The notes under the pieces were generated by a model. It worked only from the letters and a program-made list of their open reading frames with translations, searched no databases and was not told the DNA's origin. DNA of 36,329 bases from Candidatus Dojkabacteria bacterium (GTDB lineage: Bacteria > Patescibacteriota > Dojkabacteria > B142 > WJKM01), in assembly GCA_020429465.1 (NCBI GenBank), contig JAGQLH010000002.1:1-36329 (forward strand), given 5' to 3'. Position numbers and translations under genes: made by a program. Shown one piece after another: positions 5,272 to 34,369 of the stretch. Within the stretch, counting starts at the first letter, position 1; each line of letters begins with the position of its first letter.

Positions 5272-5293
5272 ATTTATTTATTAGGTGAATCAT

Positions 5294-14213: not shown

Positions 14214-16178
14214 TTATTCAACAACAATGACTTCAAAGCGATCTGGCGAGGTTGGGATGACTCTAAAAAAAGGAGGTGAGAAAAAAGGAGATATAGAGAC
14301 CTCAGCAATTTCTATTTCCTCTTGATCTTCAAGTTTCGATTTAGCTTCAGCAGGGGAAAGTCCCTGTATTTTTGAGAAAACCTCTTCTGTATCGATAATA
14401 GCTGGTACCGATACTGATTTTTTGATAGTAAAGATAGCTTTGCCATCTTCTTGGAGTTGAAGATTATCAATTTCAATTTCAGTAGAATCGAGTAGAAATT
14501 CCGAAGTTTCCTCACCATATTGCTGGGTGATAATATGATTTGCTATTTGATTTATATCGTCTTTAGCAACAACGAGTACCTTCATTTGGTATTCGAAATT
14601 AGTAATATCAAACTCCTTAGCTTCTTCTCCTACTGGAATAGATGTCTCGAGGACAACTTCCTCGTATACTTCACTACCAGGAATAATTATTTCATCATCT
14701 GATAGTTCGTTGGCTATTTTTTCTGTAAGGGAAGGTTCGATTGATTCTATTAATTTGGTTTTAAGTGTATCTACGTCTTCTTGTGACACAACAGTTATGA
14801 GATCTGAGGTACCTCCTTGTACTTTTTTGTAGATTCTTCCACTCACCTCTGAGCTTGTTTTATATTCTGCTATTTTTACATCAACCCCCGAAACATTATA
14901 TTCATCTCCATAATCTGAAGCTACTATAGGCACGTTCTCCAATGTAAAGAATGATATATCGCTGTATTTAGGCTGAAGTACGACTTGCTCAGCAAGGGTA
15001 AACACGAGATTGTCCGATAGAGTAGTTATAGGAGTACCAGCTTCTAGTGTAATTTGATCATTTGTCTTGTTTGTAATATCAACTAACCCAGTTGCCTTTT
15101 CTCCAGCGTTCGCTTCTCCCGTAGCGAGGGCGCTTTCGGATACCGATTCGGATATACTTACTTCGTGCATTGGGGCGACTTTATCTTCAAGTTGAATAGA
15201 TGAGACATCGCGTGATGCTTCTGCTTGTTCAGATATAGAAATTGATTGGTCTTGAGTTGTGATCTCTACTGAAGCCTTTCTTAATACATAAGAAAGTCCT
15301 ATATATAAGAGGATCCCAATGATAATCCAAGTAGCATACTTTTTGATTAGAGGAGATGTATTTCTACGAGTACTACGTGGAGATACTTTCTGCGATTTTT
15401 GTTTAGGTTTTGAATTGTTGTGTTGTCTTCGTTGGGCTACGAAATGTTCCTTTGGTTTGGGTGGGTCTAGGGGAATATGATGGCGAATATCTTTTACAGG
15501 AATGTTGATGTCTTCTTCTGATTCAGTTTTATCTTCATTAGTATCTACAGGGTTGATTGGTTTTTCTGGTACCTCAGGTGAACTTTTTTTTTCCTCGGGT
15601 GGTTTGATATCTTCTTCAATCATAGTAATGTCTCCACCTGCAAATATGCTAAAACCTCCTTTTTCAACGAGACGTGTCGGCGTAATTTTTTGTGTCGGTA
15701 GAGTAGGAGTTGTTATCTCAAAATTACCCGCATCTTCCGGATCTGAGTGTGTGTATTTGAATTCAGGACGAGGTTCGAGATTTTCTAAAGGTGTATTTGA
15801 TTCCTTTCGTGCTGCAATAAGCTTTTCTTTTAGTTCCTTTCGGCTTTCCGTAAGTGTAGTAATGAGAACCTGTGCATCTTCCCATATATAGTCATTAACA
15901 CTATCAACTTTTTCGAATGCAAGTAAATGTGTCTCTTCTGATTTATTCTGAGCTAGTTCACTACTCGTAATAAGAATTACTACCTTTGAAGTATCGGTAA
16001 GTTCTCTAGAAATCAACTTCAAATTGACAATGCTACTCGTGAGCGATGCATGTTTAGGAACAACTAGTAATACACGATCTGAATCCGCATGTAGTATCTT
16101 TTCAATTATGAAGACAATATCCTCATCTGCATCAACAAAAATTTTGGTACTCGCTGTTTCGCGTGTTCGTTCTGACAT
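14214..16178 (-). CDS. Hypothetical 654-aa bitopic membrane protein: cytoplasmic N-domain, Pro/Lys-rich linker, one TM, and a large beta-rich extracytoplasmic domain
   Basis: N-domain IFVDADEDIVFIIEKILHADSDRVLLVVPKHASLTSSIVNLKLISREL; basic linker ...KPKQKSQKVSPRSTRRN; TM WIIIGILLYIGLSYVL. An ectodomain segment (ATGLVDITNKTNDQITLEAGTPITT) faintly recalls baseplate-J-like proteins, which is a weak recollection. Starts 4 nt after the ftsA-like stop. Confidence 0.8.
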   Translation of the reverse strand: MSERTRETASTKIFVDADEDIVFIIEKILHADSDRVLLVVPKHASLTSSIVNLKLISRELTDTSKVVILITSSELAQNKSEETHLLAFEKVDSVNDYIWEDAQVLITTLTESRKELKEKLIAARKESNTPLENLEPRPEFKYTHSDPEDAGNFEITTPTLPTQKITPTRLVEKGGFSIFAGGDITMIEEDIKPPEEKKSSPEVPEKPINPVDTNEDKTESEEDINIPVKDIRHHIPLDPPKPKEHFVAQRRQHNNSKPKQKSQKVSPRSTRRNTSPLIKKYATWIIIGILLYIGLSYVLRKASVEITTQDQSISISEQAEASRDVSSIQLEDKVAPMHEVSISESVSESALATGEANAGEKATGLVDITNKTNDQITLEAGTPITTLSDNLVFTLAEQVVLQPKYSDISFFTLENVPIVASDYGDEYNVSGVDVKIAEYKTSSEVSGRIYKKVQGGTSDLITVVSQEDVDTLKTKLIESIEPSLTEKIANELSDDEIIIPGSEVYEEVVLETSIPVGEEAKEFDITNFEYQMKVLVVAKDDINQIANHIITQQYGEETSEFLLDSTEIEIDNLQLQEDGKAIFTIKKSVSVPAIIDTEEVFSKIQGLSPAEAKSKLEDQEEIEIAEVSISPFFSPPFFRVIPTSPDRFEVIVVE

Positions 16179-16181
16179 GGT

Positions 16182-17435
16182 TTATAGTAAGTTCTTTATA
16201 TGCTCAAAAGAAATGCTGGTAAGCGCTGCTGGTGCTACATCTCCTGTACCAATCATCATGCCCGTTCTATCTTCAATATGTTCAATTTGATTTGGGTAAA
16301 TATGATTAATTTTAGGGAATCTTTCGAAAGGTAGTACAGTGAGCCAAGGATATGCCATTAGAGCTTCTTTTAGTTCAGGTAGCTCAGATCCACCACCACT
16401 GAGGTGAATTTCTGTAGGGAATGATTCCACTTCTTTGAATTCTTCCAGTGCAATTTCCATAGCTTCAGACCAGAGGTGTGCATCTTTTGCAATTGCCACC
16501 TTCACCTTTTTCTGTGTTGTCTCTTGTACTTTTCGTAATGCATAATTAATTTTTAATTCTTCTGCGTCATGTAGCTCAAGATTAAGCGCTGTAGCGATGC
16601 GTCGTGAGAATACTCGCCCTCCAAATGCAACCATCTTAGTCCCTAAAATACCACCATCTTGAATAAGTGCAACATCTGAAGTACCTCCCCCTACATCGAT
16701 AAAGATGGAAGAGAAGTCTGATTTATGTGAACCTTTAAACATTTTTGCAATCGCATAGGGTTGGACATCGATAGTTAATATTTCTAATTCGAGTCTATCT
16801 GCGATCTCATACAAGGAGTTAATGTGGAGAGAGGGTGCAAATGTCGAGAATACACGGTAGCTTACTTCTTCACCAGTAAATCCAATGGGATCATCCACTT
16901 TTACGCCATCAATATACGTAGAGTCTATATGACTCATAATCTCTTTAATTTTATTAGGAGAAGTCCCCATTTCTTCCGCAATATCTTCAATGGAGTCTGG
17001 GAATGCCTGCTCTCGTACACTTTCAACAACATCTTGTAACTCATCATGTGTAATCCTTTCGTCTGGGTTCTCTCGTTCGTAATTCGCAACGATACTAACC
17101 CCTTTTACAAGTTCACCAGAGATACCCATGGTAACAAATTCAGGGAATGGACACTCTTCTCCAAGGATTTTATCTGCAACAGCAAGTGCTTCTCCGATTC
17201 CTCGATCGGCAGCAGAACAAACATGTTCAATATTTACCACCATCGCTCCCTCCATTGCTTTGCTATGTTGTTTAACTCGGGAATATCCAATGATCTCAGC
17301 GCCATTGTCATTAACACGGTAGATAGCTGATTTTATGAATTCAGTACCCACGTCAAGCGTCAAAAAAACGCTTTCTTCAGTAAAGAGCGAATCTTTTTCT
17401 TGTTTTTGCTTTTTAGAAAATAACGAAAATGCCAT
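16182..17435 (-). CDS. ftsA: FtsA-like actin-fold ATPase (cell division FtsA / PilM family)
   Basis: Phosphate-1 LTLDVGTEFIKSAIY, phosphate-2 IFIDVGGGTSDVALI, adenosine motif IHLSGGGSELPELKEAL. The 417-aa length fits FtsA with a 1C subdomain. Confidence 0.75.
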   Translation of the reverse strand: MAFSLFSKKQKQEKDSLFTEESVFLTLDVGTEFIKSAIYRVNDNGAEIIGYSRVKQHSKAMEGAMVVNIEHVCSAADRGIGEALAVADKILGEECPFPEFVTMGISGELVKGVSIVANYERENPDERITHDELQDVVESVREQAFPDSIEDIAEEMGTSPNKIKEIMSHIDSTYIDGVKVDDPIGFTGEEVSYRVFSTFAPSLHINSLYEIADRLELEILTIDVQPYAIAKMFKGSHKSDFSSIFIDVGGGTSDVALIQDGGILGTKMVAFGGRVFSRRIATALNLELHDAEELKINYALRKVQETTQKKVKVAIAKDAHLWSEAMEIALEEFKEVESFPTEIHLSGGGSELPELKEALMAYPWLTVLPFERFPKINHIYPNQIEHIEDRTGMMIGTGDVAPAALTSISFEHIKNLL

Positions 17436-17549: not shown

Positions 17550-18881
17550 ATGTATCCTAGTATTAAAGTTAGAAAATATATTCAGATCGCAACAGTTGTT
17601 TTTCCTCTTATCATTGTAACGGTACTTTGGATTGGGGCTAAAATTGCATCGGATTCTCCGCTAAGCTGGATGGAAATTCCTCGCTATACCAGTCAGATTA
17701 TTTCCCTCTGGGCAATCATATTGCTCGCGATGGATTATCTTCTTGCCGCACGGGTAAGGATATTGGAAAGGGTGTTTGGTGGACTCGATCAAACGTATAA
17801 ATTACACAGACTGCTTGCTGGAGTTGCATTCGCTTTTATAATTGCACATCCAATCCTTCTTATTCCAGGTGCCATGGATAGCTTTAGTCAGGTAATGACG
17901 CTATTTATCCCGTTCCATCCAGAAGGGTTCCCAGCAAAAACTGCAGGAATTATTTCGTTGTACAGCTATATAATTTTGATTTTGTTTAGTTTTTTCAGAT
18001 TTCTTCCGTATGATGTGTGGAAATTCACCCATAAGCTTCTAGGGATTCCATTTCTTTTTGGATCTTTCCATGCATTGAATGCATTTAGTGATGTTCGAGC
18101 ATATCCTCCGCTCAAATTTTGGGTAGCGCTATGGATTGTAGTGGGGATAGGTTCGTATCTTTATAAATTAGTACTATATGATGTAATTGGACCACGGTAT
18201 CGTTACAAAGTTAAAAAACATACTAGGAATGGGAGTACGTTCGAATTGTTTTTAGAACCTGTAGGGAGAAAAATGAACTATGAGCCGGGACAATTCATTT
18301 TTATGAAATATAAAAATCATGAAATTATTCCAAACGAGAAACATCCGTTTTCTATATCTTCCCCACCATCAAAAGACTTTCTTAGAATTTCGTACCATGT
18401 TTTTGGAGATTACACTACAATACTTTCTCAAAATGCAAAAGAGGGTGATTTCGTAGATTTGTATGGTCCATACGGAGAGTTTACCTCATATGTTTATGGA
18501 ATGTATAAAAAACAGATCTGGATAGCAGGAGGAATAGGGGTAACCCCTTTTTTAAGTATGTTGCATTACGAAGCATTCAATTCCGATTCAAAAGAAATTT
18601 ACTTCTATTATTGCAATAGAGATGCCCGAGATCATACATATTACAATGAAATAGCTGACCTTATGAAACGTGGGGATGATACCCTTAACTTTGGTTCGTG
18701 TCTTACTTCTCAACGGGGAAGATTGACTGCAGATCAAGTGATTCAAATGATAGGGGATGTTTCTGAGTATGTCGTTCTTATCTGTGGGCCAAAAATTATG
18801 ATGCAAAGTTTGAAATCACAATTTATTGAAAAGGGCGTACCATCACATAAGATAATTTTTGAAGACTTTGGATTTGTATAG
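17550..18881 (+). CDS. NOX / ferric-reductase-family flavocytochrome: 6-TM bis-haem ferric-reductase domain fused to FAD- and NAD(P)H-binding domains
   Basis: His pairs spaced as in NADPH oxidases: KLHRLLAGVAFAFIIAHP (H..H offset 14) and THKLLGIPFLFGSFHA (offset 13). FAD motif HPFSISS, NAD(P)H motif AGGIGVTPFLSML, and C-terminal VLICGP. Confidence 0.8.
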   Translation: MYPSIKVRKYIQIATVVFPLIIVTVLWIGAKIASDSPLSWMEIPRYTSQIISLWAIILLAMDYLLAARVRILERVFGGLDQTYKLHRLLAGVAFAFIIAHPILLIPGAMDSFSQVMTLFIPFHPEGFPAKTAGIISLYSYIILILFSFFRFLPYDVWKFTHKLLGIPFLFGSFHALNAFSDVRAYPPLKFWVALWIVVGIGSYLYKLVLYDVIGPRYRYKVKKHTRNGSTFELFLEPVGRKMNYEPGQFIFMKYKNHEIIPNEKHPFSISSPPSKDFLRISYHVFGDYTTILSQNAKEGDFVDLYGPYGEFTSYVYGMYKKQIWIAGGIGVTPFLSMLHYEAFNSDSKEIYFYYCNRDARDHTYYNEIADLMKRGDDTLNFGSCLTSQRGRLTADQVIQMIGDVSEYVVLICGPKIMMQSLKSQFIEKGVPSHKIIFEDFGFV

Positions 18882-18940: not shown

Positions 18941-20200
18941 ATGGAAATAGGAATAATAGGTGGTGGAGCAGCTGGAATAATGGCTGCAATTGTATCTAAA
19001 CGTTCAGCCCACTTCAGCAATGTCACCCTGATAGAAAAAAATGAACAAATAGGTAAAAAAATACTTGTGTGTGGTGCAGGTAGGTGTAATCTGACAAATC
19101 GAAAAATAAAACCAGATCGCTACTATGGTGCCCCAAAGCAATTTATTGGGACCGTACTCAACCAATTCGGGAGTGAGCAAATAATTGATTTTTTTGAGAA
19201 CCTTGGTATCGAAGTATACGAAGAGGAGAAAAATGGAAAACGAAAAGGGAAAATTTTTCCAGTAACAAATCAGGCAGCAACTATTGTTGAACTTTTAGAA
19301 AGTGAGTTAAAGAGGTTAGGAGTCACTGTTTTAACCGAAACAGAGGTCAAAACACTTGAATACGATTCTTCTACTGAAAAGTTTGTAGTTGAGACTACAG
19401 AGAGAGAATTAAATTTCGACAAGTGCATATTAGCAGCTGGGGGAAAAACATATCCAAATCTAGGTGCAACAGGTATTGGATACGAACTAGCTAAGAAGTT
19501 TGGACATACAATTATTGAGCCAGTACCTTCTGCAATCCCGTTACGAGTTGATCACTGGCTTATGCCTCGATTGAGTGGTGTACGAATAACCGCAGAGGTT
19601 ACTTCCATCATTGATGGCGAAGAAGTTCATTCGGATACTGATGAGATAATGTTTACAAAATTTGGTATAACTGGACCTGCGATACTTAATATTTCCCGAG
19701 AGATTTCTGTACATATTAATCGTGAAAATAAACAAAACGCGAGGATGAGAGTGAATGTGTTCCCTGGGAAGTCATTTGATGAAGTATTTTCATTGTTTCA
19801 AGATCGTTGGTTTGCCCGTCCAGATCAGGAAGTATTGTTTAGTCTGTATGGGATTTTACCTAATAAATTCTCACAAACTATTTTGCAATTTCTCCGTATT
19901 GAACCAACAAGGCATAATGAATTATTGACTACAGAAGAAAAGAAGCAAATAGTACAGGTTTTGCAATCATTAGAAGTTGAGGTAGAAGCAACACGAACAT
20001 GGAATGAAGGTGAGTTCACTGCTGGGGGGGTATTTGTAAAGGAGATTCATCCGCAGACAATGGAATCAAAAATAATACCTAACTTATTCCTTGCAGGGGA
20101 AGTAGTTAATATCGATGGAGATGTAGGAGGGTTCAATCTTTCATGGGCATGGGCATCTGGGTATGTTGCTGGTGAGGCAGTGGCTAGTGGTGTTGACTAA
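18941..20200 (+). CDS. HI0933/BaiN-like NAD(P)/FAD-dependent flavoprotein (TIGR00275-type)
   Basis: Rossmann motif IGIIGGGAAGIMAA; family-typical VCGAGRCNLTN; C-terminal LFLAGEVVNIDGDVGGFNLSWAWASG. Confidence 0.8.
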   Translation: MEIGIIGGGAAGIMAAIVSKRSAHFSNVTLIEKNEQIGKKILVCGAGRCNLTNRKIKPDRYYGAPKQFIGTVLNQFGSEQIIDFFENLGIEVYEEEKNGKRKGKIFPVTNQAATIVELLESELKRLGVTVLTETEVKTLEYDSSTEKFVVETTERELNFDKCILAAGGKTYPNLGATGIGYELAKKFGHTIIEPVPSAIPLRVDHWLMPRLSGVRITAEVTSIIDGEEVHSDTDEIMFTKFGITGPAILNISREISVHINRENKQNARMRVNVFPGKSFDEVFSLFQDRWFARPDQEVLFSLYGILPNKFSQTILQFLRIEPTRHNELLTTEEKKQIVQVLQSLEVEVEATRTWNEGEFTAGGVFVKEIHPQTMESKIIPNLFLAGEVVNIDGDVGGFNLSWAWASGYVAGEAVASGVD

Positions 20201-20256: not shown

Positions 20257-21174
20257 ATGGATGATATAACACCGGAGAATTCAGGCGAGAAATTGGATGA
20301 TTTAACCGTGTCTAAAGATGAGGAACTTTCCTTAACGCCAGATATTGAAGATGATACAGTTAAGCCTCCTGTTAAAGAACCTAAGAAAAAACCCAAGACA
20401 AAGCTTCTGGTTATGATTCTTCTTCCATTGCTTTTTTTGTGCGTAAGTACTTTTGTATTTCTCCTCGTATCTGCATTTCTAAGAGTTCGTAACGCCGAGA
20501 CTGCAGAGTATAAAAGAGTTATGCCTGAAGTTCAAGATGTTGTAAGCATTGAATTACCCTTGAGTGATGTACAGATCATTGAAAGTGATACATCTGAAAT
20601 GAATATCTCACTTCAAGGACCAGAATACTTTATAGCAAGCTTGCGTTTAACAGAATTCTTTTCAACTACAAAATTAGGAACAAGATATTTCTCTCCAGCT
20701 TCTTCACCTTTTATTCGTATGTTTTCGCGTGATGAACAGCTTTCAGGAACGATTAGTATACCTACAGGAGTTGCCTTGGAGCTTATTGTAGATAATGAAT
20801 CAATTATACGTGTAGATGGTGTATCTACAACGTATCAAGTAGAAGCAGATGGGGATTCGCAAGTAATTATTACCAATAGTAGTGTTGAGAATGGTATTTT
20901 TTCTCTCAATAGTAATGCACATGTTGAAATTGCGGATTGTCAGGGCAATCTTTCTCTTGTTGTGAAAGATAAGGGAGATTTTGTAGCTGAAAAATGCCTA
21001 TTGGAAGAGATAACGATAGATGTTGATGGTACAGGTTCAATTGAAATACAAGATGGGACCATTACAAATGGGTTTATTTCAATGTCAGGAAAAGGATCAA
21101 TAGTAATTCCTCGTCCATCAGAACGCACAAGACAAGATGTCGATGGCACGGGCGAAGTTCAGTTTTTAAACTAA
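20257..21174 (+). CDS. Hypothetical bitopic membrane protein with a beta-helix-like (DUF2807/DUF4097-like) ectodomain
   Basis: Acidic N-terminus, KKKPKTK stop-transfer, and TM LLVMILLPLLFLCVSTFVFLLVSAFL. C-terminal repetitive VDG.G.I segments (VDGTGSIEI, MSGKGSIVI, VDGTGEVQF). The domain call is tentative. Confidence 0.7.
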   Translation: MDDITPENSGEKLDDLTVSKDEELSLTPDIEDDTVKPPVKEPKKKPKTKLLVMILLPLLFLCVSTFVFLLVSAFLRVRNAETAEYKRVMPEVQDVVSIELPLSDVQIIESDTSEMNISLQGPEYFIASLRLTEFFSTTKLGTRYFSPASSPFIRMFSRDEQLSGTISIPTGVALELIVDNESIIRVDGVSTTYQVEADGDSQVIITNSSVENGIFSLNSNAHVEIADCQGNLSLVVKDKGDFVAEKCLLEEITIDVDGTGSIEIQDGTITNGFISMSGKGSIVIPRPSERTRQDVDGTGEVQFLN

Positions 21175-21191
21175 GTTTCGATAACAATTTT

Positions 21192-22295
21192 ATGAAAAAC
21201 TCACATGCTACGCAGGCTAGGGAGACACTGCAGTTGGTACGGGAAAAATTGGATGAGAAATTAGACATATTTTTTCAACAGTTATTTAAGGATATCAAAC
21301 AGAGTTACTCGGAGTATTCGTATGAGTCTTTTAAGCCGCTGTGGGATGTAACGGCAAGAGGTGGAAAGCGACTCAGGGGGTCATTTGTAATCAAGACATA
21401 TGAGTTAATTGCACATGATATTCCAAACAGTGTGTATGATATTGGTATGGCAATAGAGATGACACACGCATATTTACTCATTTTGGATGATATTGCAGAT
21501 CGATCCAATCAAAGAAGAGGTGGTAAGACTGCTCATAAAATGATTGAACGGTATTACAAGGAAAATAAAACCTTTAAGACTGTAGATGCAGAACATTTTG
21601 GTAATTCAATTGCGATCTTTGTAGCATTAGTAAACCAGCATTTAGCATCCAATGTGATTTTAGATAGTTCATTCCCAGTAGAGAAAAAACTCGAAGTTCT
21701 ACATTTTCTTAATAGGACTATCTATGAAACTGTTCATGGTCAGTTGAATGATATTTTTAATGAAATACGTGTTGATGTTAGTGAAGAAGACATAGTAAAT
21801 GTGTTGAAATTGAAAACTGGGCTATATACTTACGAGAATCCAATATCAATCGGTGCTGCACTTGCAGGAGCAAGTATAGAGGAACAAAAAATCTTGAGAG
21901 ATTATGCGATTCCTGCAGGAATCGCATTCCAGATTCAAGATGATATTCTTGGCGTATTCGGAGATCCTGAAAAACTTGGGAAACCAAATTTAGATGATAT
22001 TAGAGAAGGAAAAATGACACTCCTTGTACATCATGCACTAAAAGTTGGAAATGAAAGTCAAAAAGCAATAATTGAGCATTCACTTGGAAATCCAGAATTT
22101 AACTCAGATATGCTCGAAGATGTTAGGAAGGTAATGATAGATACCGGGTCATTAGATTATTCCAAGACGAAAGCAACGGAATATGTTATGAAAGCTAAAC
22201 AGGAATTAAAACAGGGGTTGGAATTTAACTGGAGCGAGGAAGGGTATAACTATCTAATGGGGATAGCTGATTATATGATTCAACGTAAATTGTAA
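21192..22295 (+). CDS. crtE: Polyprenyl diphosphate synthase, probable geranylgeranyl-diphosphate synthase
   Basis: FARM LILDDIADRSNQRRG with Tyr at -5; SARM FQIQDDILGVFGD; KTG..T motif. Located 2 nt upstream of crtI. Confidence 0.85.
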   Translation: MKNSHATQARETLQLVREKLDEKLDIFFQQLFKDIKQSYSEYSYESFKPLWDVTARGGKRLRGSFVIKTYELIAHDIPNSVYDIGMAIEMTHAYLLILDDIADRSNQRRGGKTAHKMIERYYKENKTFKTVDAEHFGNSIAIFVALVNQHLASNVILDSSFPVEKKLEVLHFLNRTIYETVHGQLNDIFNEIRVDVSEEDIVNVLKLKTGLYTYENPISIGAALAGASIEEQKILRDYAIPAGIAFQIQDDILGVFGDPEKLGKPNLDDIREGKMTLLVHHALKVGNESQKAIIEHSLGNPEFNSDMLEDVRKVMIDTGSLDYSKTKATEYVMKAKQELKQGLEFNWSEEGYNYLMGIADYMIQRKL

Positions 22296-22297
22296 TC

Positions 22298-23773
22298 ATG
22301 CGAGGAAAGAAAGTCGCTATTATTGGTGCAGGTATTTCAGGTCTAGCGGTTGCTCCTATTCTGGCAAAAAAAGGGTTTGAAGTTGAAGTATATGAAAAAA
22401 ATAACCAACCAGGCGGAAGAGCTATGGTACTTGAGGACTCTGGTTTCAAATTCGATATGGGGCCATCATGGTATATGATGCCAGAAATTTTTGATCAGTG
22501 GTTTGCCAAACTTGGAAGAAAACGCGAAGATTACTTCTCAATATCTAAATTGAATCCTAATTACCGTCTATTCTTTCCAGATGATGAAAAAATTACTATC
22601 ACAACAGATTGGGATGAATTAGAAAATATCTTCGAAAAATATGAGCCCGGAAGTGGTGTGAGACTTCGGAAATATCTTGATGAATCAGAAGAGAAATATA
22701 ACGTGGCTGTTGATAAGTACCTCTCAATGAACTTTACCTCTCTGTGGCAACTTCTAGACTTTGATCTCCTTAGGAAAGCGGTTGTATGGAAAATGTGGAG
22801 ATCTTGGAACGAACATGTATGTAAATCATTCAAAAACGCAAAGCTACAGAAAGTTCTCCTGTGGCCAGCAGTATTTTTAGGTGGAAGCCCAAAAAACTTA
22901 CCGTCCTTGTATTCACTAATGTCACATGTTGATTTACAACAAGGTGTTTTTTATCCTGACAGGGGATTTCAATCATTAGTACAAGCGATGTATGAGGTTG
23001 GTACAGAAGAAGGGGTTAATTATAGCTTTAATTCAGAAGTACAGAAGATACATGTTAAGAATGGTAAAGCTGTGAGTTTAGTTGTTAATGATTCAATCAA
23101 AGAAGTAGATTTGGTCATTGGTAGTGCAGATTATCAGCACATTGAGGAGCATCTACTACCCAATACAGAAAAGCAATTTATTAATTGGGATCAAAGGGTT
23201 TTGGGTCCACATACCTTCTGCATATACCTAGGAATTTCTAAACAATTACATAACTTGACACATCATAATTACTATTTTCAAGAGGATGAAGAATGGGATG
23301 ATCATTTCTCTGCAATTTTTGGTAAAAAACAGTGGCCAAAAAATCCTTCAGTGTATATTTGCTGTCCTTCGAAAACAGATAATCAGGTAGCACCAAAAGG
23401 GCAGGAGAATATATTTATGCTTATTCCTGTAGCCTCAGGTCTGAATGATACTAATGAGGAACGTGAAAAATTATATAACTATTCAATCAATATTCTCGAA
23501 AAGGTTACGGGAGATTCGATTCAGGATCATGTAGTCTTCAAAAAGATTATCTCCCATAGGGACCATATTGAATTGTATAATGCATTTCAGGGTAATAGTC
23601 TTGGACTTGCTCAGACATTACTGCAGACAGGTCCATTTCGTTTGAAAATGAGACATCCAAATATATCGAATTTATTTTATACTGGCCACTATACTCAACC
23701 TGGAACAGGTACCCCAATTTGTGTCCGATCAGGGGAGATTGTAGCTGAAGAGGTAATGAAATACTATGAATAG
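22298..23773 (+). CDS. crtI: Phytoene desaturase (CrtI family)
   Basis: KKVAIIGAGISGLAVAPILAKKGFEVEVYEKNNQPGGRA...GFKFDMGPSW; C-terminal NLFYTGHYTQPGTGTPICVRSGE. Confidence 0.9.
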   Translation: MRGKKVAIIGAGISGLAVAPILAKKGFEVEVYEKNNQPGGRAMVLEDSGFKFDMGPSWYMMPEIFDQWFAKLGRKREDYFSISKLNPNYRLFFPDDEKITITTDWDELENIFEKYEPGSGVRLRKYLDESEEKYNVAVDKYLSMNFTSLWQLLDFDLLRKAVVWKMWRSWNEHVCKSFKNAKLQKVLLWPAVFLGGSPKNLPSLYSLMSHVDLQQGVFYPDRGFQSLVQAMYEVGTEEGVNYSFNSEVQKIHVKNGKAVSLVVNDSIKEVDLVIGSADYQHIEEHLLPNTEKQFINWDQRVLGPHTFCIYLGISKQLHNLTHHNYYFQEDEEWDDHFSAIFGKKQWPKNPSVYICCPSKTDNQVAPKGQENIFMLIPVASGLNDTNEEREKLYNYSINILEKVTGDSIQDHVVFKKIISHRDHIELYNAFQGNSLGLAQTLLQTGPFRLKMRHPNISNLFYTGHYTQPGTGTPICVRSGEIVAEEVMKYYE

Positions 23774-24590
23774 TTCGCAAGCACAAAAAATTTTCAAAGC
23801 AGCAAGTGTAACACATTATTATGCTTCAATCTTCTTTCCAAAACGCATACGAAACGATGTAATCAAATTCTATGCTTTCGTCCGAATAGCAGATGATCTA
23901 GCTGAGAATACCAAAACGAAGGAAGAATACGATGAATTCAGGGATAGTTATTTTAGAGCTCGACAAGGAGAGAAGGTAGTAAATACATTGGTGAGTGACT
24001 ATGTTAGTGTCGAGAAAAAGAGATTTATCCCGAATGAATATATGGATGCATTTTTCTCATCAATGGACGCAGATAAAAAGAAATACCAGTATGAGGATTT
24101 TAAAGAATTAGATAAGTATATCTATGGCTCTGCAGAAGTTATTGGTCTTGTACTCACAAAAATAATGCAACTCTCTGACAATTCATATGAATTTGCACAG
24201 AAATTAGGGTATGCGTATCAGTATGCTAATTTCATCCGAGACATCGATGAAGATAGGCGGATGGGGAGAACTTATATACCCATTGAAGAATTTCAAAAAT
24301 TTGGAATCGATTACCACAAAGTTCCGAAAACAGAAGATCAAAAAAAACAATTCAAGAAATTTCTACGAGCACAAATTGAAAGATATCGAGTGATTACAAA
24401 AGAGGCAGAGAAGGGATTCCATTTTATTCCATGGCGCATGAGGCTTCCAATTAAAGCATCGACACGAATGTACAATTGGACTATGGATAAAATTTATCAG
24501 GATCCCATGATTGTATACAAAAAGAAGGTTAAGCCCACAAAGAATCGTGTGATATTTTCCGTCTTCGAGTCATTATTTTCCTTATCGTAA
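23766..24590 (+). CDS. crtB: Phytoene synthase (squalene/phytoene synthase family; CrtB, or possibly CrtM)
   Basis: YYASIFFPKRIRNDVIKFYAFVRIADDLAE, YGSAEVIGL, YQYANFIRDIDEDRRMGRTYIP. Its start overlaps the crtI stop (ATGAATAG). Confidence 0.9.
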   Translation: MNSSQAQKIFKAASVTHYYASIFFPKRIRNDVIKFYAFVRIADDLAENTKTKEEYDEFRDSYFRARQGEKVVNTLVSDYVSVEKKRFIPNEYMDAFFSSMDADKKKYQYEDFKELDKYIYGSAEVIGLVLTKIMQLSDNSYEFAQKLGYAYQYANFIRDIDEDRRMGRTYIPIEEFQKFGIDYHKVPKTEDQKKQFKKFLRAQIERYRVITKEAEKGFHFIPWRMRLPIKASTRMYNWTMDKIYQDPMIVYKKKVKPTKNRVIFSVFESLFSLS

Positions 24591-25291
24591 TGGAATTTGT
24601 GTATCTCATTATAAATCTTGTAGTTTGGTGCATTCCGCTGAGCGCTTCAGTGATGGGGCTAGGTAAAAAGGAGTATTTCGTTCAACGATTCATTGCTGGA
24701 TTAGTAACTATTGGCTTTGGATTTATTATATGGGATGTATGGGCAACAGCAAATAATGTATGGTCATTTAATACAGAGTACATAACAGGACATACAATAG
24801 GGGGACTTCCAATAGAAGAAATTTTGTTTTTTATAACTATTCCGTATAGTTGTCTTGCTATCTACCATGGACTTGGGTATATAAAGTTGAAGGAAATGGA
24901 ACGATCTATCAAAGTTCCTCGATTAATCGGGATGGTACTAGCTGGTATTTGTTTAATACTAGGATTGGTTTATTGGGCAAAAAAGTATACTAGTCCGGTA
25001 TTAGTTTTGACTTCAATTATACTTTGGCTACTCCTCCGTTATTATAGATATCTTCTCCCTGTTCGCTATGTGGTATTTATGGTGATATCCTACTTCTTTT
25101 TTATTATTATAAATGGGATACTTACGGGGCTTCCAATTGTCATCTATACACCCGATCACATAGTAGGAACAAGGATATTGACTATACCCGTGGAAGATTT
25201 CTTTTATAATTTCTCGCTACTTACCTTATATTTACTAGTATATGAATATACCGGTAGATGTATTGGTATTAATAAGGAACGATACCGCTAG
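24590..25291 (+). CDS. crtY: Lycopene cyclase, fused CrtYc/CrtYd-type (two lycopene-cyclase domains)
   Basis: 233-aa polytopic protein with duplicated motifs GLPIEEILFFITIPY and LTIPVEDFFYNFSL. TAATG overlap with crtB. Confidence 0.8.
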   Translation: MEFVYLIINLVVWCIPLSASVMGLGKKEYFVQRFIAGLVTIGFGFIIWDVWATANNVWSFNTEYITGHTIGGLPIEEILFFITIPYSCLAIYHGLGYIKLKEMERSIKVPRLIGMVLAGICLILGLVYWAKKYTSPVLVLTSIILWLLLRYYRYLLPVRYVVFMVISYFFFIIINGILTGLPIVIYTPDHIVGTRILTIPVEDFFYNFSLLTLYLLVYEYTGRCIGINKERYR

Positions 25292-26606: not shown

Positions 26607-27566
26607 ATGAATGCGCGATTATTTTCCCGGATAAGTATCGGTGAAAAGATTCTTATAGGACTTTCTGTGGTGTACATCATCATAATGCTTTTCACCTTAA
26701 ACTTAGGAAGAAATAGTAATTTAGTTGTTCGTTCATTTAAACAAATTGAAGAAGAAGAGCGTTATCTGTTTATTCTTGAAGAAATCTATAACGAAAATCT
26801 TTTCACACTTAGACATTTTAACGACTATATTCACACACGAAGTAGAGACTCCTTTGTTCAATATGAACAACATAGACGAATAGTTGATGTACAACTAACT
26901 GCACTTCAGGGGATAAGTAGTGTTTATACATTCAATACTTCATATGAATCCTTACTTTTACTAGATTCACTTGATGAACTGAGAGAATTTGAAGATTTTC
27001 TTTTAGATAATGTTTCCAACGGAAGGTTTGGAATGAATATCGTTTTGTATGATTCGCAATATGTTTCACTTGTGGATGATGTAGATCGTATTCTGATCCG
27101 TTTGTTAGAACAACGTAGGTCACTGTTACAAACTCTGAAACAAACGAATTCTGAACATGTTCAGTACTTCCAAGGATCGAGAATCGGTATTTTACTAGCT
27201 ACTCCTATTTTCACCATAATAGTTCTTCTTTTTATTTCAAATACAGTAAGTACACCTATTAAAAAGCTTGAACAGACAGCAGCTGAATTTGCCAAAGGTA
27301 ATTTTTCGAAACGAGTGGATATAGAAACTGGTGATGAAATTGGAAAATTGGCAAAGGTGTTTAATGATATGGCAAAAAATTTACAAACGAGGACAAAAGA
27401 GTTAGAACAAAGTAAAAAAGACTTAGAGCAAGAAGTTAGGAAAAGAACACGAGAATTAAATAAACAAGTAGATGAGTTAGAGCGGATCACAAATATAATG
27501 GTTGATAGGGAACTCAAGATGGTTCAGCTTAAAAAAGAACTTTCAAATATAAAATCAAAAAAATAA
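26607..27566 (+). CDS. Membrane sensor protein: 2 TM, helical ectodomain, HAMP and coiled coil, with no output domain
   Basis: TM1 ILIGLSVVYIIIMLFTL and TM2 IGILLATPIFTIIVLLFI. HAMP PIKKLEQTAAEFAKGNFSKRVDIETGDEIGKLAKVFNDMAKNL. Coiled coil ending ...MVDRELKMVQLKKEL. Confidence 0.8.
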   Translation: MNARLFSRISIGEKILIGLSVVYIIIMLFTLNLGRNSNLVVRSFKQIEEEERYLFILEEIYNENLFTLRHFNDYIHTRSRDSFVQYEQHRRIVDVQLTALQGISSVYTFNTSYESLLLLDSLDELREFEDFLLDNVSNGRFGMNIVLYDSQYVSLVDDVDRILIRLLEQRRSLLQTLKQTNSEHVQYFQGSRIGILLATPIFTIIVLLFISNTVSTPIKKLEQTAAEFAKGNFSKRVDIETGDEIGKLAKVFNDMAKNLQTRTKELEQSKKDLEQEVRKRTRELNKQVDELERITNIMVDRELKMVQLKKELSNIKSKK

Positions 27567-27567
27567 A

Positions 27568-29430
27568 ATGACCAGAAAGAGTGAACTTAAAAAAAGCTTA
27601 GAAGATTTCTTCTATTCAGGTGAGATGCGGACATACGAGACAGATCGCACACAGAGGCTAGCACTAGTTAATACATTTCTTACAGTTGGTCTATTCGGTT
27701 TACTTTATTTAGGTATTGCGAACATACTACGTGAGGGATATTGGCAGGGGATTGTGGAGGTATCCGCAGCATTGGTAAGTATGGTATCTATCGTATTATT
27801 GAGAAAAACGAAGGAAATAGAAACAATTGCTTTTATAGAGACAGCAAAGATCTTTGTAATAGTGCTTTATCTTTTCATAACAGGAAGTGTAGGTAATACA
27901 GGATTATTATGGCAACCATTTTTCCCAATTGTTGCCTTTGGTTTGAATAGGAGGAGAAATGGTGTGATATGGATATTTACTTACTTTGTAGCTATGGCTA
28001 CGATGTGGGTACTCAATACTAACCTTAATTTATGGACATCATATTCAACAATTCAATTAAGTCGGACAATGCTTGGGGTGGTTTTTATGACATTCTTTAT
28101 ATACATATATGAGTCAATTATGTCCGAGGATTTAAAATATATAAGAACCAAGAATAATCAATTGAGCAAAGCAAACAAAGAACTCCGGGGTCATATTGAT
28201 AAAGTAGATGAAGCAAAAAAAGAGCTAAAACACGTAGTAAAGGAGCTAAAAGACAAAAACAAACAATTAGAAGAAATAAAATCTGCAATGTTGAATGTTT
28301 TGGAGGACATAGAAGATGAGAAAGAATTCACAGCCGAGGAAAGAAATAAACTCGAGACTATTATAGAGAGTATTGGGGACGCAGTGTTTGTAGTAGATAG
28401 TAATCGAAACATTATTCTAGTAAACAATATTACTGAAGAGATGACACAATATTCTAAAAGAGACCTAATTGGGAAGAAATATAGTAAACATCTCAGATTT
28501 TTACATGAGAAGGATGATACAGATGCCAGTAGTTTTATCGAAGAGGTATTTGAATTAGGAAATGTAATTTCTATGCCAGAAGATACAGTCCTTGTTAGAA
28601 AAGATGGTACGAAGCTTGCTGTAAACGATTCAGCATCACCTGTCTTTAGTGAATCTGGGGATATCATAGGGTGTGTTGTAGTATTTAGAGATACAAGTCA
28701 GGAGCGTGAAATAGATAGGATGAAATCAGAATTCGTTTCAGTTGCATCTCATCAGCTCAAAACTCCACTTACAGGAATAAAGTGGGTGGTTGAATCGTTA
28801 TTGGATGATAAATCAGAACTAACTGATGAAAACAAAGCGCTAGTTCTAGAAATATTCAAAAGTAATGAAAGAATGATTGATCTAGTAAATGATTTATTAA
28901 ATGTTTCAAGGATTGAATCGGGTGATAAATTCATACTTGATGCTAAAGAGAATGATATTATCTCAATAATTAAGCAAGTCATCAAAGATCAATCAGCATT
29001 TGCGGCAAAGGAGAATGTTATTATCACCCTTGATGAAGATATACCTGAAGCCTTAGTTGTTTCTGTTGATAAAGATAAGATTTTACAATTATTCAACAAT
29101 TTAATCAGTAACGCTGTTAAATATGCAAAGGATGAAGGCTCTGTAAAGGTAGGAGTTGATAATACACATGAGAAAAATATTGTAATTACTGTACAAGATG
29201 ATGGAATTGGAATCCCCAGAAATCAAAGGAAACGTATATTTGAAAAATTCTTCAGGGCTGATAATGTGTATAAAAGTGAGTCAGAAGGTACAGGGCTGGG
29301 ATTATATATTTCTCGTGCAATAGCAGAGGCGCATGGAGGTGATATTTGGTTCAAATCAAATGAAGATAAAGGTTCAATTTTTTATATATCACTTCCAAAA
29401 ATTCTTGCAGTGAAAAAGGAAAACAAGTAG
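27568..29430 (+). CDS. Sensor histidine kinase: ~6-TM N-domain, coiled coil, PAS, HisKA and HATPase_c
   Basis: H-box SEFVSVASHQLKTPLT, N-box LISNAVKYA, G1 VQDDGIGIP, G2 GTGLGLYISRAIAEAHGG. PAS-like segment LETIIESIGDAVFVVDSNRNIILVN. Confidence 0.9.
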   Translation: MTRKSELKKSLEDFFYSGEMRTYETDRTQRLALVNTFLTVGLFGLLYLGIANILREGYWQGIVEVSAALVSMVSIVLLRKTKEIETIAFIETAKIFVIVLYLFITGSVGNTGLLWQPFFPIVAFGLNRRRNGVIWIFTYFVAMATMWVLNTNLNLWTSYSTIQLSRTMLGVVFMTFFIYIYESIMSEDLKYIRTKNNQLSKANKELRGHIDKVDEAKKELKHVVKELKDKNKQLEEIKSAMLNVLEDIEDEKEFTAEERNKLETIIESIGDAVFVVDSNRNIILVNNITEEMTQYSKRDLIGKKYSKHLRFLHEKDDTDASSFIEEVFELGNVISMPEDTVLVRKDGTKLAVNDSASPVFSESGDIIGCVVVFRDTSQEREIDRMKSEFVSVASHQLKTPLTGIKWVVESLLDDKSELTDENKALVLEIFKSNERMIDLVNDLLNVSRIESGDKFILDAKENDIISIIKQVIKDQSAFAAKENVIITLDEDIPEALVVSVDKDKILQLFNNLISNAVKYAKDEGSVKVGVDNTHEKNIVITVQDDGIGIPRNQRKRIFEKFFRADNVYKSESEGTGLGLYISRAIAEAHGGDIWFKSNEDKGSIFYISLPKILAVKKENK

Positions 29431-29460
29431 CATGTAACTATTATATTTGTAACGTAAGCT

Positions 29461-29838
29461 ATGCAGCGTAAAAAAGTTCTAATAGTTGAAGATGAACCGT
29501 TGTTGTCGAAAATGCTAGAAGAGGGCCTTGTTTCTAGCGGGTTCGATGTGTTGACTGCTGAAAACGGAGAAGAAGGGTTCGAAGTTGCTAAAGAAAAACA
29601 GCCGGACATAGTTTTATTAGATATTGTAATGCCTAAAATGGATGGGCTTACAGTAATGAAAAAGTTAAAACGAGAAGCTTCTACACATACAATGCCAGTA
29701 ATTATTCTCACTAATCTGGAGCCTAATGATGAAGCGATTGATAGAATTGCAAAGGATAATCCAGCATACTACCTTACTAAGTCTAATACTGAAGTTTCCG
29801 AAATAGTAGAAAAGGTAAAAGAGGTGCTTGAGGTATAA
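29461..29838 (+). CDS. Stand-alone response-regulator receiver (CheY-like, no output domain)
   Basis: KVLIVEDEPLL, phospho-acceptor context DIVLLDIVMPKMDG, VIILTN, YYLTKS. Confidence 0.9.
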   Translation: MQRKKVLIVEDEPLLSKMLEEGLVSSGFDVLTAENGEEGFEVAKEKQPDIVLLDIVMPKMDGLTVMKKLKREASTHTMPVIILTNLEPNDEAIDRIAKDNPAYYLTKSNTEVSEIVEKVKEVLEV

Positions 29839-31432: not shown

Positions 31433-34369
31433 TTACGGCATAAATTCAAATATAGCAATACTTCCATTCGATACAATAGTACCAGTCATCCCTCTAGAGG
31501 CAGTGGTGATTCCGTTTGATGATTGAATTTGATATACCCCATCCTCATCTTCAACAAGTCGATCTGTTGCAACAAGACGAAGTTTTGAGTTTTGTTGCAT
31601 GAATGCTTCCATTTTATTCATCTTCTTGGTAAGTGTTTGTTCTTCGGTTCGATCGAGCGAGTTTGTGTTTAGATCAACTACTAAGTAATTAAACCCAGAG
31701 TTGTGCAATTTAATAGCAAGCTCTTCATGTGAATCACTCTTTGTATAAAGTTTATTGAATGTGTCGAGCTGATTGTCATTGAAAACACGTTTATTATTAT
31801 CGTGAATGAAATAATTCATTAATGTCCCTACTTTATAAACATTTGTATCGAGGTTTTGATTGATTTCATCATATCCATCAGCATAGGCAAAGTTTATATC
31901 ACGTAATGTATCCTCGACAGATTGTGGACGAGTCATATATGATGCAATGGTTGGAACAAATAGGTTTTCGTCTCCAGGTGATTTAGGTGTAAAGAAGCTA
32001 AAAAATGCAATAAATATGTAGCAACCAATAACGAAATTTCCGACTTTGTGCCCGATGCGAGCCCAGGTAGATGTGGGTGATTCTATAGTAATTTTTTCTA
32101 ATACTATGACCAAGAATAAATAGAGCAGGATAAATCCAATGAGACCATACCAATAGATCCCTGTTCCAATAAAGAGCCAGATGAGAAGATAGAGAATTGT
32201 TCCCCCACTCAGGAGCTGAAGTTCTTCATGTTCTCTGAATATCTTTGTAGTAAAGTAAAGAGAAACTACCGAAGTAATAAGTACTAGTGCTACCCCAAAT
32301 GATTCTCCTAGGAAACTATATGCGGTAAGGAGTATCCCCCAGACTGGATTTAGAATAAGTAGGGGGTAGTAGGCTATTCGGTAGAGTACTGTTTGTTCGG
32401 ACCGAGATATAAATTCATCTGTGTAGCACGAAAAGCTTAGTTGAGAGCAAAGGTCTGCATCTAACGTCGAGAGGATTGATGGGACCAAGAGTAAGATAAA
32501 GAAACTAGAAATAGAAATAGCCGCTAACCGGGGGTGCCGTTTATACAGTAATATGAATGAAATAATTGGAAGCAGGCTAAGCAGTAATGGACCGATATCT
32601 GCAATTGCACTACTAACATTTGTATTCATAATTACATCGTATGGAAGGGAAAGTATTCTAAGTGCACCTTCTTCATATCCGATGTATCGTGTTACTGCTT
32701 CTGTCACTCCTGTCGTTGCTACTGATTGTTCGCCAACATTGTTCGTTGGTGATACTTGTTCTACTCCGATCTCTTCGAGTGAAATTTTTTGCTGAGATAA
32801 TTTATTAATTTCGAGTCTAGGAGATTCTGTGGTACCTCGCAATAGGGTACTTATTTCTATGTTGTTAGTTGATTGAGTCAAATGAAATAAAATCCAAGGA
32901 GAAAATCCAATTATAAGGGAAGTCCCGAAAAGTAATAATGAAGTTACGAAGTTTCGAGTATTACTTTTATTGCTATTTAATTTCAAATAACGTAGTGCAG
33001 AATAAATTGTAAGTAGAGTAGAAATGCTTAATACTACCCATGGAGCAGGAATAGACAATGGAACACCTGGTAGTTCACTATGCGCGAATAAGGTTATAGA
33101 AGCTAGACTTGCTAGAATAATACAAAAACTAGAGAATGCAATACTTAACCATTGCTTCCCAAAATAATAAGCAATACTTGTAGCTATCAAAACAATAAAA
33201 ATAGTGCTAGTGTACTTTACTCCAAAAAGAAAGCCACAAAGTATTCCAAGTATTATAATGATTGCCTTTGTTGAAATATTCTGTGAGTCGTTCTGTGGGA
33301 ATATCCATGAAAAAGTGAGTGAAAGCACGGTAAAAGAGAGAAATAGCAACCCTAAGTCTATTTTCATATCACGTGAGAGCATGAAAATAATAGAAGGAAG
33401 CAGTACGAGTAATACAAGCAATAATTTCACATAGCTTTCTGAGAGATATCGTTTTGAAAATGAAGCAATTACACCCAATGCAAGTACTCCACCAAGCCAT
33501 GATAGCCCCATGACAACCTCAATACTATTGAAAAGCAATGTCCCCAGTGACATAAATAATGACCAATTATAAGCATCTATACCTTGGACTAAAGTACCTT
33601 GTCGAGCAATTAAATTTGGAATATTTACATATAAATTAGACGCATCCCAACCAATAGGGAACGGTTTAATTTGGTGCATCAGACTAAGAAGTATAGCTAA
33701 GCTTATAATCCAGACAAAACCGAGATCTTTTAAGGTAATTTCTGATGAAACAGTGTGTTTCTTTAAAAGCGTTAATACGAGAAATCCTTTTACATGACGA
33801 TACCCCAGGAGTAGGAGTGTCAAACAGAGGATCCAGACTGGTATTGGTGACAGTAACGAAGTGGTACCAAGTAGAAAAAGTCCGGTTGTCAGCACTACAA
33901 TTCCAAAAGCAATTTTAGTGTAGAACCCATTTGCAAGAGACCCAATCCATTTTTGCAGTGAATTTTCTACAAACGCACCGATTGTATAGCAGACACCAAC
34001 TATGAAATATAATTGGAACGAGAGTATTAAAAACTTAAACAAGAAATAGCTTATACCTGAGAAATATCCGATGTCAGTAAATACAGAGTTCGAAAGACCA
34101 TATACGCTCATTAGTGTAAATACAAAGATGATTGCATACAGTATGACTTGCCACCCATAGAACGAAAAGTGATTATTAGATTGGGGGAGTTTTCGTATAA
34201 AGAAATAGGTAATAAGAGTTACGCCAAACGTCGTTAACGCAACAAAAGCAAATGGAAAATCCCACAATGCGCGTTCATAAGTGGGATGCTGTAAGAAATA
34301 TTCACTTAAGGTAAGTGCTAACCATAGAGTTGCAATGGTACCAAATATTCCAGATAAAAGTTTTTTCAT
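31433..34369 (-). CDS. Very large (978 aa) polytopic membrane protein with more than 20 TM helices and a ~180-aa C-terminal soluble domain; putative GT-C-type glycosyltransferase
   Basis: Almost continuous hydrophobic helices to about aa 790, then a hydrophilic C-domain. The function is inferred from size, topology and the divergently adjacent GT2/DUF2304 pair. No catalytic motif was confidently identified. Confidence 0.8.
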   Translation of the reverse strand: MKKLLSGIFGTIATLWLALTLSEYFLQHPTYERALWDFPFAFVALTTFGVTLITYFFIRKLPQSNNHFSFYGWQVILYAIIFVFTLMSVYGLSNSVFTDIGYFSGISYFLFKFLILSFQLYFIVGVCYTIGAFVENSLQKWIGSLANGFYTKIAFGIVVLTTGLFLLGTTSLLSPIPVWILCLTLLLLGYRHVKGFLVLTLLKKHTVSSEITLKDLGFVWIISLAILLSLMHQIKPFPIGWDASNLYVNIPNLIARQGTLVQGIDAYNWSLFMSLGTLLFNSIEVVMGLSWLGGVLALGVIASFSKRYLSESYVKLLLVLLVLLPSIIFMLSRDMKIDLGLLFLSFTVLSLTFSWIFPQNDSQNISTKAIIIILGILCGFLFGVKYTSTIFIVLIATSIAYYFGKQWLSIAFSSFCIILASLASITLFAHSELPGVPLSIPAPWVVLSISTLLTIYSALRYLKLNSNKSNTRNFVTSLLLFGTSLIIGFSPWILFHLTQSTNNIEISTLLRGTTESPRLEINKLSQQKISLEEIGVEQVSPTNNVGEQSVATTGVTEAVTRYIGYEEGALRILSLPYDVIMNTNVSSAIADIGPLLLSLLPIISFILLYKRHPRLAAISISSFFILLLVPSILSTLDADLCSQLSFSCYTDEFISRSEQTVLYRIAYYPLLILNPVWGILLTAYSFLGESFGVALVLITSVVSLYFTTKIFREHEELQLLSGGTILYLLIWLFIGTGIYWYGLIGFILLYLFLVIVLEKITIESPTSTWARIGHKVGNFVIGCYIFIAFFSFFTPKSPGDENLFVPTIASYMTRPQSVEDTLRDINFAYADGYDEINQNLDTNVYKVGTLMNYFIHDNNKRVFNDNQLDTFNKLYTKSDSHEELAIKLHNSGFNYLVVDLNTNSLDRTEEQTLTKKMNKMEAFMQQNSKLRLVATDRLVEDEDGVYQIQSSNGITTASRGMTGTIVSNGSIAIFEFMP

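Follow-up and report, generated by a model that had tools for sequence, protein, structure and literature searches.

We identified a four-gene carotenoid operon, with the order crtE-crtI-crtB-lycopene cyclase, on contig JAGQLH010000002.1 of assembly GCA_020429465.1, in a stretch of 36,329 nucleotides that was analyzed over its whole length and is called the window below. The operon is probably a native and translationally coupled one of Candidatus Dojkabacteria (WS6), a lineage of the candidate phyla radiation (CPR, also known as Patescibacteria). It consists of four open reading frames (ORFs), all on the same strand:

21192..22295, plus strand, crtE-like short-chain trans-polyprenyl diphosphate synthase, presumed geranylgeranyl diphosphate (GGPP) synthase (367 aa; PF00348)
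22298..23773, plus strand, crtI-family carotenoid desaturase, presumed phytoene desaturase (491 aa; TIGR02734)
23766..24590, plus strand, crtB-like phytoene synthase (274 aa; PF00494)
24590..25291, plus strand, fused two-domain CrtYc/CrtYd-type lycopene cyclase (233 aa; two PF18916/TIGR03462 domains)

The coordinates of the four genes, a 2-nt gap and overlaps of 8 nt and 1 nt had been given in the original prediction, and all of them were reproduced exactly from the ORF list and the junction sequences. The crtE/crtI junction reads TAA-TC-ATG, the 8-nt overlap of crtI and crtB is ATGAATAG, and crtB shares one nucleotide with the cyclase gene in TAATG. Start codons and overlaps are credible, since in alignments the N-termini of all four products line up with the N-termini of their homologues. 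Overlapping crtI/crtB junctions were also found in relatives of the clade, with 8 nt in a Thermoplasmatota locus (L109) and 14 nt in loci L081 and L193. At its 3' end, the cyclase gene shares 23 nt with a convergent M23-peptidase gene. The segment 24187-25624, which comprises the 3' end of crtB, the cyclase gene and the 3' end of the M23 gene, recurs at 100% identity in two further public ENA assembly records; exact look-up of the cyclase returned matches only in two 1.4-kb contigs, and exact look-up of the CrtI protein matched no record. The sample accession SAMN08389196 was not found in any paper.

Family profiles matched all four of the families that are required from GGPP to a cyclized carotene, in line with what had been predicted. 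CrtE matched PF00348 (Polyprenyl_synt) with 192.4 bits (cut-off 27; E = 1.1e-56), and its best match in the PDB was the GGPP synthase of Corynebacterium (3lk5; 1.3e-34). The first aspartate-rich motif (FARM) is DDIAD at residues 99-103, and the five residues upstream of it, Y-L-L-I-L, place a tyrosine at position -5. An aromatic residue five positions upstream of the FARM is characteristic of short-chain enzymes, i.e., those with products of up to C20.

CrtI scored 421.5 bits against TIGR02734 (cut-off 238.1) and carries the N-terminal GxGxxG motif as GAGISG at residues 10-15; it is presumed from its family to convert phytoene to lycopene by four desaturations. When relatives were sought among 5.8 billion proteins, the best matches were 55% and 53% identical (P0002 and P0003, respectively), and the remaining ones, from Bacteroidota, Thermoplasmatota, Spirochaetes and CPR, were at about 38-46% identity. 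The CrtI tree grouped the window protein with P0002, P0003, P0004, P0016, P0013 and P0086, in an assemblage that includes neither WS6 OLB20 nor the Bacteroidota group, although it is a crude tree built by neighbor-joining only, and little weight should be placed on its deep branching. The names of cluster members gave no indication of the taxonomy of P0002, P0003, P0016 and P0086.

CrtB matched PF00494 (SQS_PSY) with 165.4 bits (cut-off 26; E = 2.7e-48) and contains two aspartate-rich Mg-binding motifs, DDLAE at residues 43-47 and DIDED at 159-163. Its closest relatives, at 37-42% identity, are encoded by crtB genes of Thermoplasmatota clusters and of clusters in CPR-labelled metagenome-assembled genomes (MAGs). 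The fourth gene product passed the cut-offs of both lycopene cyclase profiles, PF18916 (95.2 bits vs. 27; E = 3.6e-27, two matched stretches) and TIGR03462 (96.8 bits vs. 39.4); failure in such searches had been considered in the original prediction as a point that would speak against it. The two Lycopene_cyc domains lie at residues 4-91 and 133-220, and because both are above the cut-off and each has a PxE(E/D) motif (PIEE at 74, PVED at 200), we assign the gene to the fused CrtYc/CrtYd-type cyclases. The protein has five strongly hydrophobic segments, and its nearest relatives (40-43% identity) come from WOR-3, Ignavibacteria and Bacteroidota. It would be expected from its family to cyclize lycopene, forming beta or epsilon rings at one end or at both.

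The same contig encodes markers of its host lineage. The best matches of the isoleucyl-tRNA synthetase (IleRS; 5285-8041) were 68% and 66% identical proteins of Candidatus Dojkabacteria MAGs, and among GTDB species representatives it matched only Dojkabacteria and CPR MAGs. FtsA (16182-17435) had identities of 63% with a protein from Dojkabacteria and of 52% with the FtsA of WS6 OLB20; its named matches were all from Dojkabacteria/WS6 except for two, one labelled "[bacterium]" and one from Candidatus Doudnabacteria, another CPR lineage. The ftsA gene lies immediately to the left of a seven-gene co-directional block that contains the crt operon, and the order FtsA, a hypothetical protein of ~650 aa, GroES and GroEL is kept on three related Dojkabacteria contigs. 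GroEL was dropped as a taxonomic marker, its best matches (57-63% identity) being scattered over many phyla. The crt genes, with a GC content of 0.35-0.37, did not differ from the remainder of the contig in GC content, GC at third codon positions (GC3), correlation of relative synonymous codon usage (RSCU; 0.67-0.86) and tetranucleotide profile; composition, GC3 and codon usage were the same as for IleRS, FtsA and GroEL. Taken from IleRS, FtsA, the conserved synteny and the matching composition, the operon appears to be resident in a Dojkabacteria genome, rather than part of a chimera or a fresh import. The CPR-like nature of the organism had been predicted from the surrounding genes, with the reservation that the contig might bin to a conventional pigmented phylum; by IleRS, FtsA and synteny it does not place in such a phylum, and its closest relatives are Candidatus Dojkabacteria.

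Several observations weigh against a native operon for C40 carotenoids. CrtE stays below all equivalog cut-offs (NF041003, 163.7 vs. 500; NF045685, the CrtE model, 83.5 vs. 460), and because of this we infer its chain length, and with it the assignment as GGPP synthase, from the genomic context. Its second aspartate-rich motif (SARM), DDILG at residues 250-254 followed by VFGD, is without the third aspartate of the canonical DDxxD; the same DDxxG variant is found in crtE of L081, L083, L087 and L193, whereas L084 and L086 have DDLLD. In CrtB, the first motif, DDLAE, ends in glutamate and not in aspartate, and the protein misses the equivalog CrtB models with 90, 77 and 73 bits compared to the required 500, 550 and 480. 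As a control, the CrtB of a Bacteroidota carotenoid cluster (L108) likewise failed these models with 57-71 bits, which indicates that the models do not cover this clade. CrtI also reaches no equivalog-level cut-off, so that its substrate and product specificity rests on context, and it belongs to a divergent branch. At the loci of its nearest relatives P0002 and P0003 (L090/L091 and L092/L093), the desaturase gene is solitary: a CruF-like hydratase gene (PF04240), MscL and an Ogt-like gene lie near it, a VirB4/TraG-like ATPase is encoded on the same contigs, and neither crtB nor crtE was found within 10 kb. Since these two desaturase genes adjoin a CruF-like gene and not crtB, the desaturases of this branch could act on other substrates. 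Finally, the three closest Dojkabacteria contigs have unrelated genes at the ftsA locus in place of the crt block, which is therefore lineage-specific or relocated.

Two alternatives concern the identity and the origin of the genes. If the synthase were of the CrtM or HpnD type, as the original prediction had allowed for, a C30 diapocarotenoid pathway (CrtM/CrtN) or a squalene pathway (HpnC/HpnD/HpnE) would have been misread as a C40 pathway. The highest NCBIfam score of CrtB is indeed that for HpnD, but with 133.4 bits it is less than half of the cut-off of 278.6, and the HpnC score (112.1 vs. 250.5) is under its cut-off as well. The control CrtB from the Bacteroidota cluster with crtI, cyclase and hydroxylase genes also ranks HpnD highest, as do the crtB products of the Thermoplasmatota locus and of two CPR-labelled loci; this ranking is thus a property of the short phytoene synthase (PSY) clade and not evidence for HpnD, and an HpnD identity was rejected by means of the control CrtB. 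In addition, the Hpn route requires two SQS_PSY genes, of which the window has one, and the desaturase scored 46 bits on HpnE (cut-off 283) as opposed to 421 with the CrtI-family model. When CrtB was aligned with solved structures, its Ser21 took the position of Phe26 in CrtM of S. aureus. Presumably, Phe26 limits the product of CrtM to C30, and a small residue at this position permits C40. Phenylalanine is found there in three solved chains, two deposited as CrtM/dehydrosqualene synthase (8is6 is among the phenylalanine-bearing chains) and the third being 5iys, the top PDB match of the window protein, which we take to be a C30 enzyme itself; this favors the C30 alternative, but the window protein has serine, and its homologues from CPR-labelled and Thermoplasmatota clusters have serine or threonine. 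Based on this serine and on the translational coupling of the synthase gene to those of a prenyl synthase and a lycopene cyclase, a C40 rather than a C30 product is well supported by the sequence, and we consider the C30 or squalene alternative to be highly improbable. The second alternative is that the cluster does not belong to the CPR genome, either through a chimeric or mis-binned contig or through very recent transfer from a pigmented bacterium of the FCB (Fibrobacteres-Chlorobi-Bacteroidetes) group or an archaeon. The nearest named relatives of CrtI and the cyclase do come from Bacteroidota, Thermoplasmatota, WOR-3 and Ignavibacteria, the block is missing from the ftsA-flanking position in related contigs, and several MAG labels are unreliable. 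However, every homologue from outside the CPR is only about 35-46% identical, which leaves no candidate donor; a Dojkabacteria-type ftsA lies within 4 kb on the left; the junction of crtB, the cyclase gene and the M23 gene recurs in the two other ENA records; and a cluster of this kind is present in a second Dojkabacteria genome, WS6 OLB20. Recent transfer or chimeric assembly was rejected on composition, and we give a foreign cluster very little chance. The picture is one of an old, ameliorated cluster without an identifiable donor; an ancient transfer is likely, and it is compatible with a native operon.

In the pathway that we propose for this native operon, CrtE would condense isopentenyl diphosphate and dimethylallyl diphosphate, probably derived from mevalonate, to GGPP, and CrtB would join two GGPP molecules head to head to give phytoene. 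The single CrtI-family flavoenzyme would then convert phytoene to lycopene and may proceed to a 3,4-didehydro form, an extension suggested by the NCBIfam model of its clade. The membrane-embedded cyclase of the CrtYc/Yd type would close one or both psi-ends to give gamma- and/or beta-carotene. A supply of isoprenoid precursors is plausible, since enzymes of the mevalonate pathway have been reported in Dojkabacteria (Hoshino and Gaucher 2018, PMC6107057). If the operon is expressed, the carotene hydrocarbon would reside in the cell membrane, most likely giving protection against oxidants or light and/or ordering the membrane.

To define what else the window encodes, all ORFs of at least 100 aa, except for short ones that overlap longer genes in another frame or on the other strand, were scanned against Pfam, and unannotated ORFs were re-scanned at E = 10. 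Matches to rhodopsin, heliorhodopsin, Blh/Brp, CrtZ/CrtW, CruF and UbiA elongase were all absent from the 36-kb window in these scans, in agreement with the earlier statement that rhodopsin, blh/brp, ketolase and hydroxylase genes are missing from it. There was no match in the window to UbiA (PF01040) or Caroten_synth (PF04240), which are encoded at loci of relatives (UbiA at L081; PF04240 at L090, L092 and L109), nor was there a glycosyltransferase attributable to carotenoids, and Rfam and tRNA scans of the window yielded nothing. Given that the window contains no tailoring enzyme (hydroxylase, ketolase, hydratase or elongase) and no cleavage enzyme, the local end product would be a carotene hydrocarbon. 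Unannotated ORFs of 231-262 aa were considered as a hidden rhodopsin or Blh and rejected; their products are single-transmembrane (TM), secreted-type proteins with no Pfam match at E = 10.

The same enzymes might form a different product, with CrtI acting as a bifunctional 3,4-desaturase and the cyclase closing one end only, which would result in gamma-carotene or a torulene-like carotenoid instead of beta-carotene. The best model for CrtI is by far NF058655 (bifunctional phytoene desaturase/3,4-desaturase), whose cut-off is passed by proteins of Bacteroidota, Thermoplasmatota and the CPR-labelled loci L081 and L082. The window protein, with 593.8 bits, falls just below this cut-off of 640, and its sisters P0002 and P0003 fail it as well (569 and 580, respectively). 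Cyclases of the CrtYc/Yd type occur in organisms that make monocyclic or bicyclic carotenoids. Against a monocyclic product, the window has no CruF hydratase or hydroxylase with which a myxol-type pathway would continue, and the numbers of desaturations and rings are not predictable from sequence alone. We regard this variant as possible, although rather unlikely. A different role would be the supply of beta-carotene, mainly for the retinal of a (helio)rhodopsin with its gene in another part of the genome. Heliorhodopsins are known from 7 Dojkabacteria genomes (PMC9166423), rhodopsin-bearing Saccharibacteria lack blh and are proposed to import retinal (PMC9296517), and some heliorhodopsins in other phyla are flanked by carotenoid genes (PMC8612252). 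Nevertheless, neither a rhodopsin or heliorhodopsin nor a Blh/Brp-type dioxygenase is encoded in the window, its small unannotated proteins are not 7-TM ones, and no adjacent rhodopsin was present in the crt loci of CPR relatives that were inspected, so that we judge retinal supply as the main role to be improbable. Similarly doubtful is the idea of chromophore-autonomous Dojkabacteria, in which self-made beta-carotene would be cleaved by a dioxygenase that is encoded elsewhere or is unrecognized, to provide retinal for heliorhodopsins; if true, it would contrast with the host-supplied retinal proposed for Saccharibacteria.

The carotenoid operon of the window is not without precedent. Nine GTDB loci have 8-mer peptides in common with the window CrtI, and five of these are CPR-labelled. 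The gene orders at the relevant loci are as follows:

L081 (CPR-labelled), crtI-crtB-crtE, then a UbiA prenyltransferase gene
L082 (WS6 OLB20), crtI-crtB and a gene for a 233-aa fused cyclase
L083 ("Gammaproteobacteria"), crtI-crtB-crtE
L084 and L086 (CPR-labelled), crtE-crtB-crtI
L087 ("Candidatus Levyibacteriota"), crtI-crtB-crtE
L193 (unplaced MAG), cyclase-crtI-crtB-crtE with overlapping genes, beside ribosomal protein genes

The original prediction had described autonomous pigment synthesis as unusual in the CPR, and in view of the crt clusters in WS6 OLB20 and in MAGs labelled Saccharibacteria, Parcubacteria, Paceibacteria and Levyibacteriota this rarity was overstated. The cluster is uncommon for the CPR yet not unprecedented, and it is a divergent addition to clusters that are already in public CPR genomes. 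None of the papers retrieved in our literature search described a crtE-I-B-Y operon from Dojkabacteria; the search found no link of carotenoid genes to Dojkabacteria or, with crtI, to Saccharibacteria, and a search on "CrtID" returned nothing relevant. With regard to the labels, the CrtI proteins of L083 and L087 are 93% identical despite different phylum labels, and the label of one of these bins is probably wrong. In binchicken MAGs, "Candidatus Saccharibacteria" may have been applied to Patescibacteria at large.

A close known system is that of WS6 OLB20 (JYNZ01000003.1), a member of the same candidate phylum that has its crt cluster and FtsA on one contig of 744,746 bp. Its cluster shares with the window the CrtI clade, a short PSY (~275 aa), the 233-aa fused cyclase and the order crtI-crtB-crtY. 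In contrast, identities to the window proteins are 41% for CrtI, 37% for CrtB and 32% for the cyclase; crtE is not within 8 kb of the cluster; the upstream gene encodes a DUF1295/alpha-beta-hydrolase fusion, whereas that of the window encodes a DUF2807 protein; and its CrtI passes the NF058655 cut-off that the window CrtI fails. The cluster of Hufsiella arboris/Pedobacter sp. HMF7647 (Sphingobacteriales, Bacteroidota; L108), the source of the control CrtB, is similar in having an NF058655-type CrtI, a 279-aa CrtB with the same pattern of NCBIfam scores as in the window and a 227-aa fused Lycopene_cyc cyclase. It differs in its divergently arranged genes, the lack of crtE, nearby FA_hydroxylase (CrtZ-like) and cytochrome-b5 genes and identities of 42%, 35% and 35%, and it belongs to a free-living pigmented phylum.

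Among known systems, the Pantoea-type cluster crtE-X-Y-I-B-Z likewise relies on one CrtI-type desaturase for four steps, together with a GGPP synthase, a phytoene synthase and a lycopene cyclase. The Pantoea cyclase is an FAD-type CrtY that is unrelated to the CrtYc/Yd membrane type, and it is the latter type that the window encodes. The window is also without crtX and crtZ, and Pantoea CrtI (PDB 4dgk) is a distant match of the window CrtI, with 165 bits. Two Lycopene_cyc domains, PxE(E/D) motifs and hydrophobic helices are shared with the heterodimeric CrtYc/CrtYd of Actinobacteria and the fused forms of Archaea and fungi, although no characterized member of this family is closer to the window cyclase than roughly 35-40%. 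The C50 cyclases of the family are paired with a UbiA elongase, in contrast to the window, which has no UbiA. CrtI-family desaturases and carotenoid genes within the CPR are also represented by the crtI-crtB-crtE-UbiA cluster of L081 and by the bacterioruberin-type genes lyeJ, crtD and cruF of Lake Baikal Patescibacteria (Haro-Moreno et al. 2023, PMC9948471). Unlike these, the window contains a cyclase and lacks the UbiA elongase and the CruF hydratase, which speaks for a cyclic C40 route rather than an acyclic C50 one.

According to the usual description, members of the CPR cannot synthesize membrane lipids of their own, nor most secondary products. A complete native crt operon would mean that some Dojkabacteria, which are tiny and probably host-dependent, devote part of a small genome to a self-made membrane isoprenoid. 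Such a pigment operon suggests that the cells are exposed to light or oxidative stress, or that they have to tune a membrane assembled from scavenged lipids. The four genes can be cloned and would provide a test case both for pigment synthesis in the CPR and for the source of retinal in CPR (helio)rhodopsins. The finding extends the published and database precedents and does not overturn them.

Upstream of the operon, the co-directional block begins with three further genes:

17550-18881, plus strand, NOX-like ferric-reductase/FAD/NAD protein, at the head of the same-strand block
18941-20200, plus strand, HI0933/TIGR00275 "aminoacetone oxidase family" flavoprotein (423 bits vs. cut-off 184)
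20257-21174, plus strand, single-TM DUF2807 beta-helix protein, ending 17 nt before crtE

The annotations and positions of these genes agree with the original prediction, which had placed them upstream on the same strand. The gaps that follow them are 59, 56 and 17 nt, respectively, and they are possibly co-transcribed with the crt operon, as judged from their arrangement. A consensus scan for promoters and terminators gave counts equal to those in shuffled sequence and hence no evidence on operon boundaries, and homologues of the three genes were not found beside crt genes in loci L081-L094. A weaker possibility is that the NOX-like, flavoprotein and beta-helix genes form a unit with the crt genes that pairs electron transfer or reactive oxygen species at the membrane with protection by carotenoids. 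The NOX-like protein, which is unexpected in a CPR genome, has a ferric-reductase TM domain with the histidine pairs H86/H100 and H161/H174, the FAD motif HPFS at residue 265 and the NAD(P)H motif GGIGVTPF at residue 327.

The genes just downstream of the operon (26607-29838, plus strand) code for a protein with a HAMP domain, a MASE6-PAS histidine kinase and a receiver domain that stands alone. The kinase (27568-29430) was considered as a light-oxygen-voltage (LOV) photoreceptor and rejected, as the flavin-cysteine motif of the NCRFLQ type is missing from it. Further downstream, on the minus strand (31433-34369), lies the gene for a 978-aa protein in which at least 15 segments are hydrophobic and for which Pfam gave no match even at E = 10.

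On the other side of the operon, the gene between ftsA and groES (14214-16178, minus strand) encodes a 654-aa protein with no Pfam match, and proteins of 639-692 aa occupy the corresponding position in the three Dojkabacteria contigs, which suggests a partner of FtsA that is specific to the lineage. An ORF6N/KilA-N-type phage-associated gene (4729-5271, plus strand) is located directly upstream of ileS, and its codon usage is deviant, with an RSCU correlation of 0.41 in comparison to 0.7-0.86 in the neighboring genes. The IleRS of several Dojkabacteria and CPR relatives (loci L097-L104) contains, between the positions corresponding to window residues ~617 and ~620, an extra 0.5-1.1 kb, possibly representing an intein or a domain insertion, that is missing from the window, L095 and L096.

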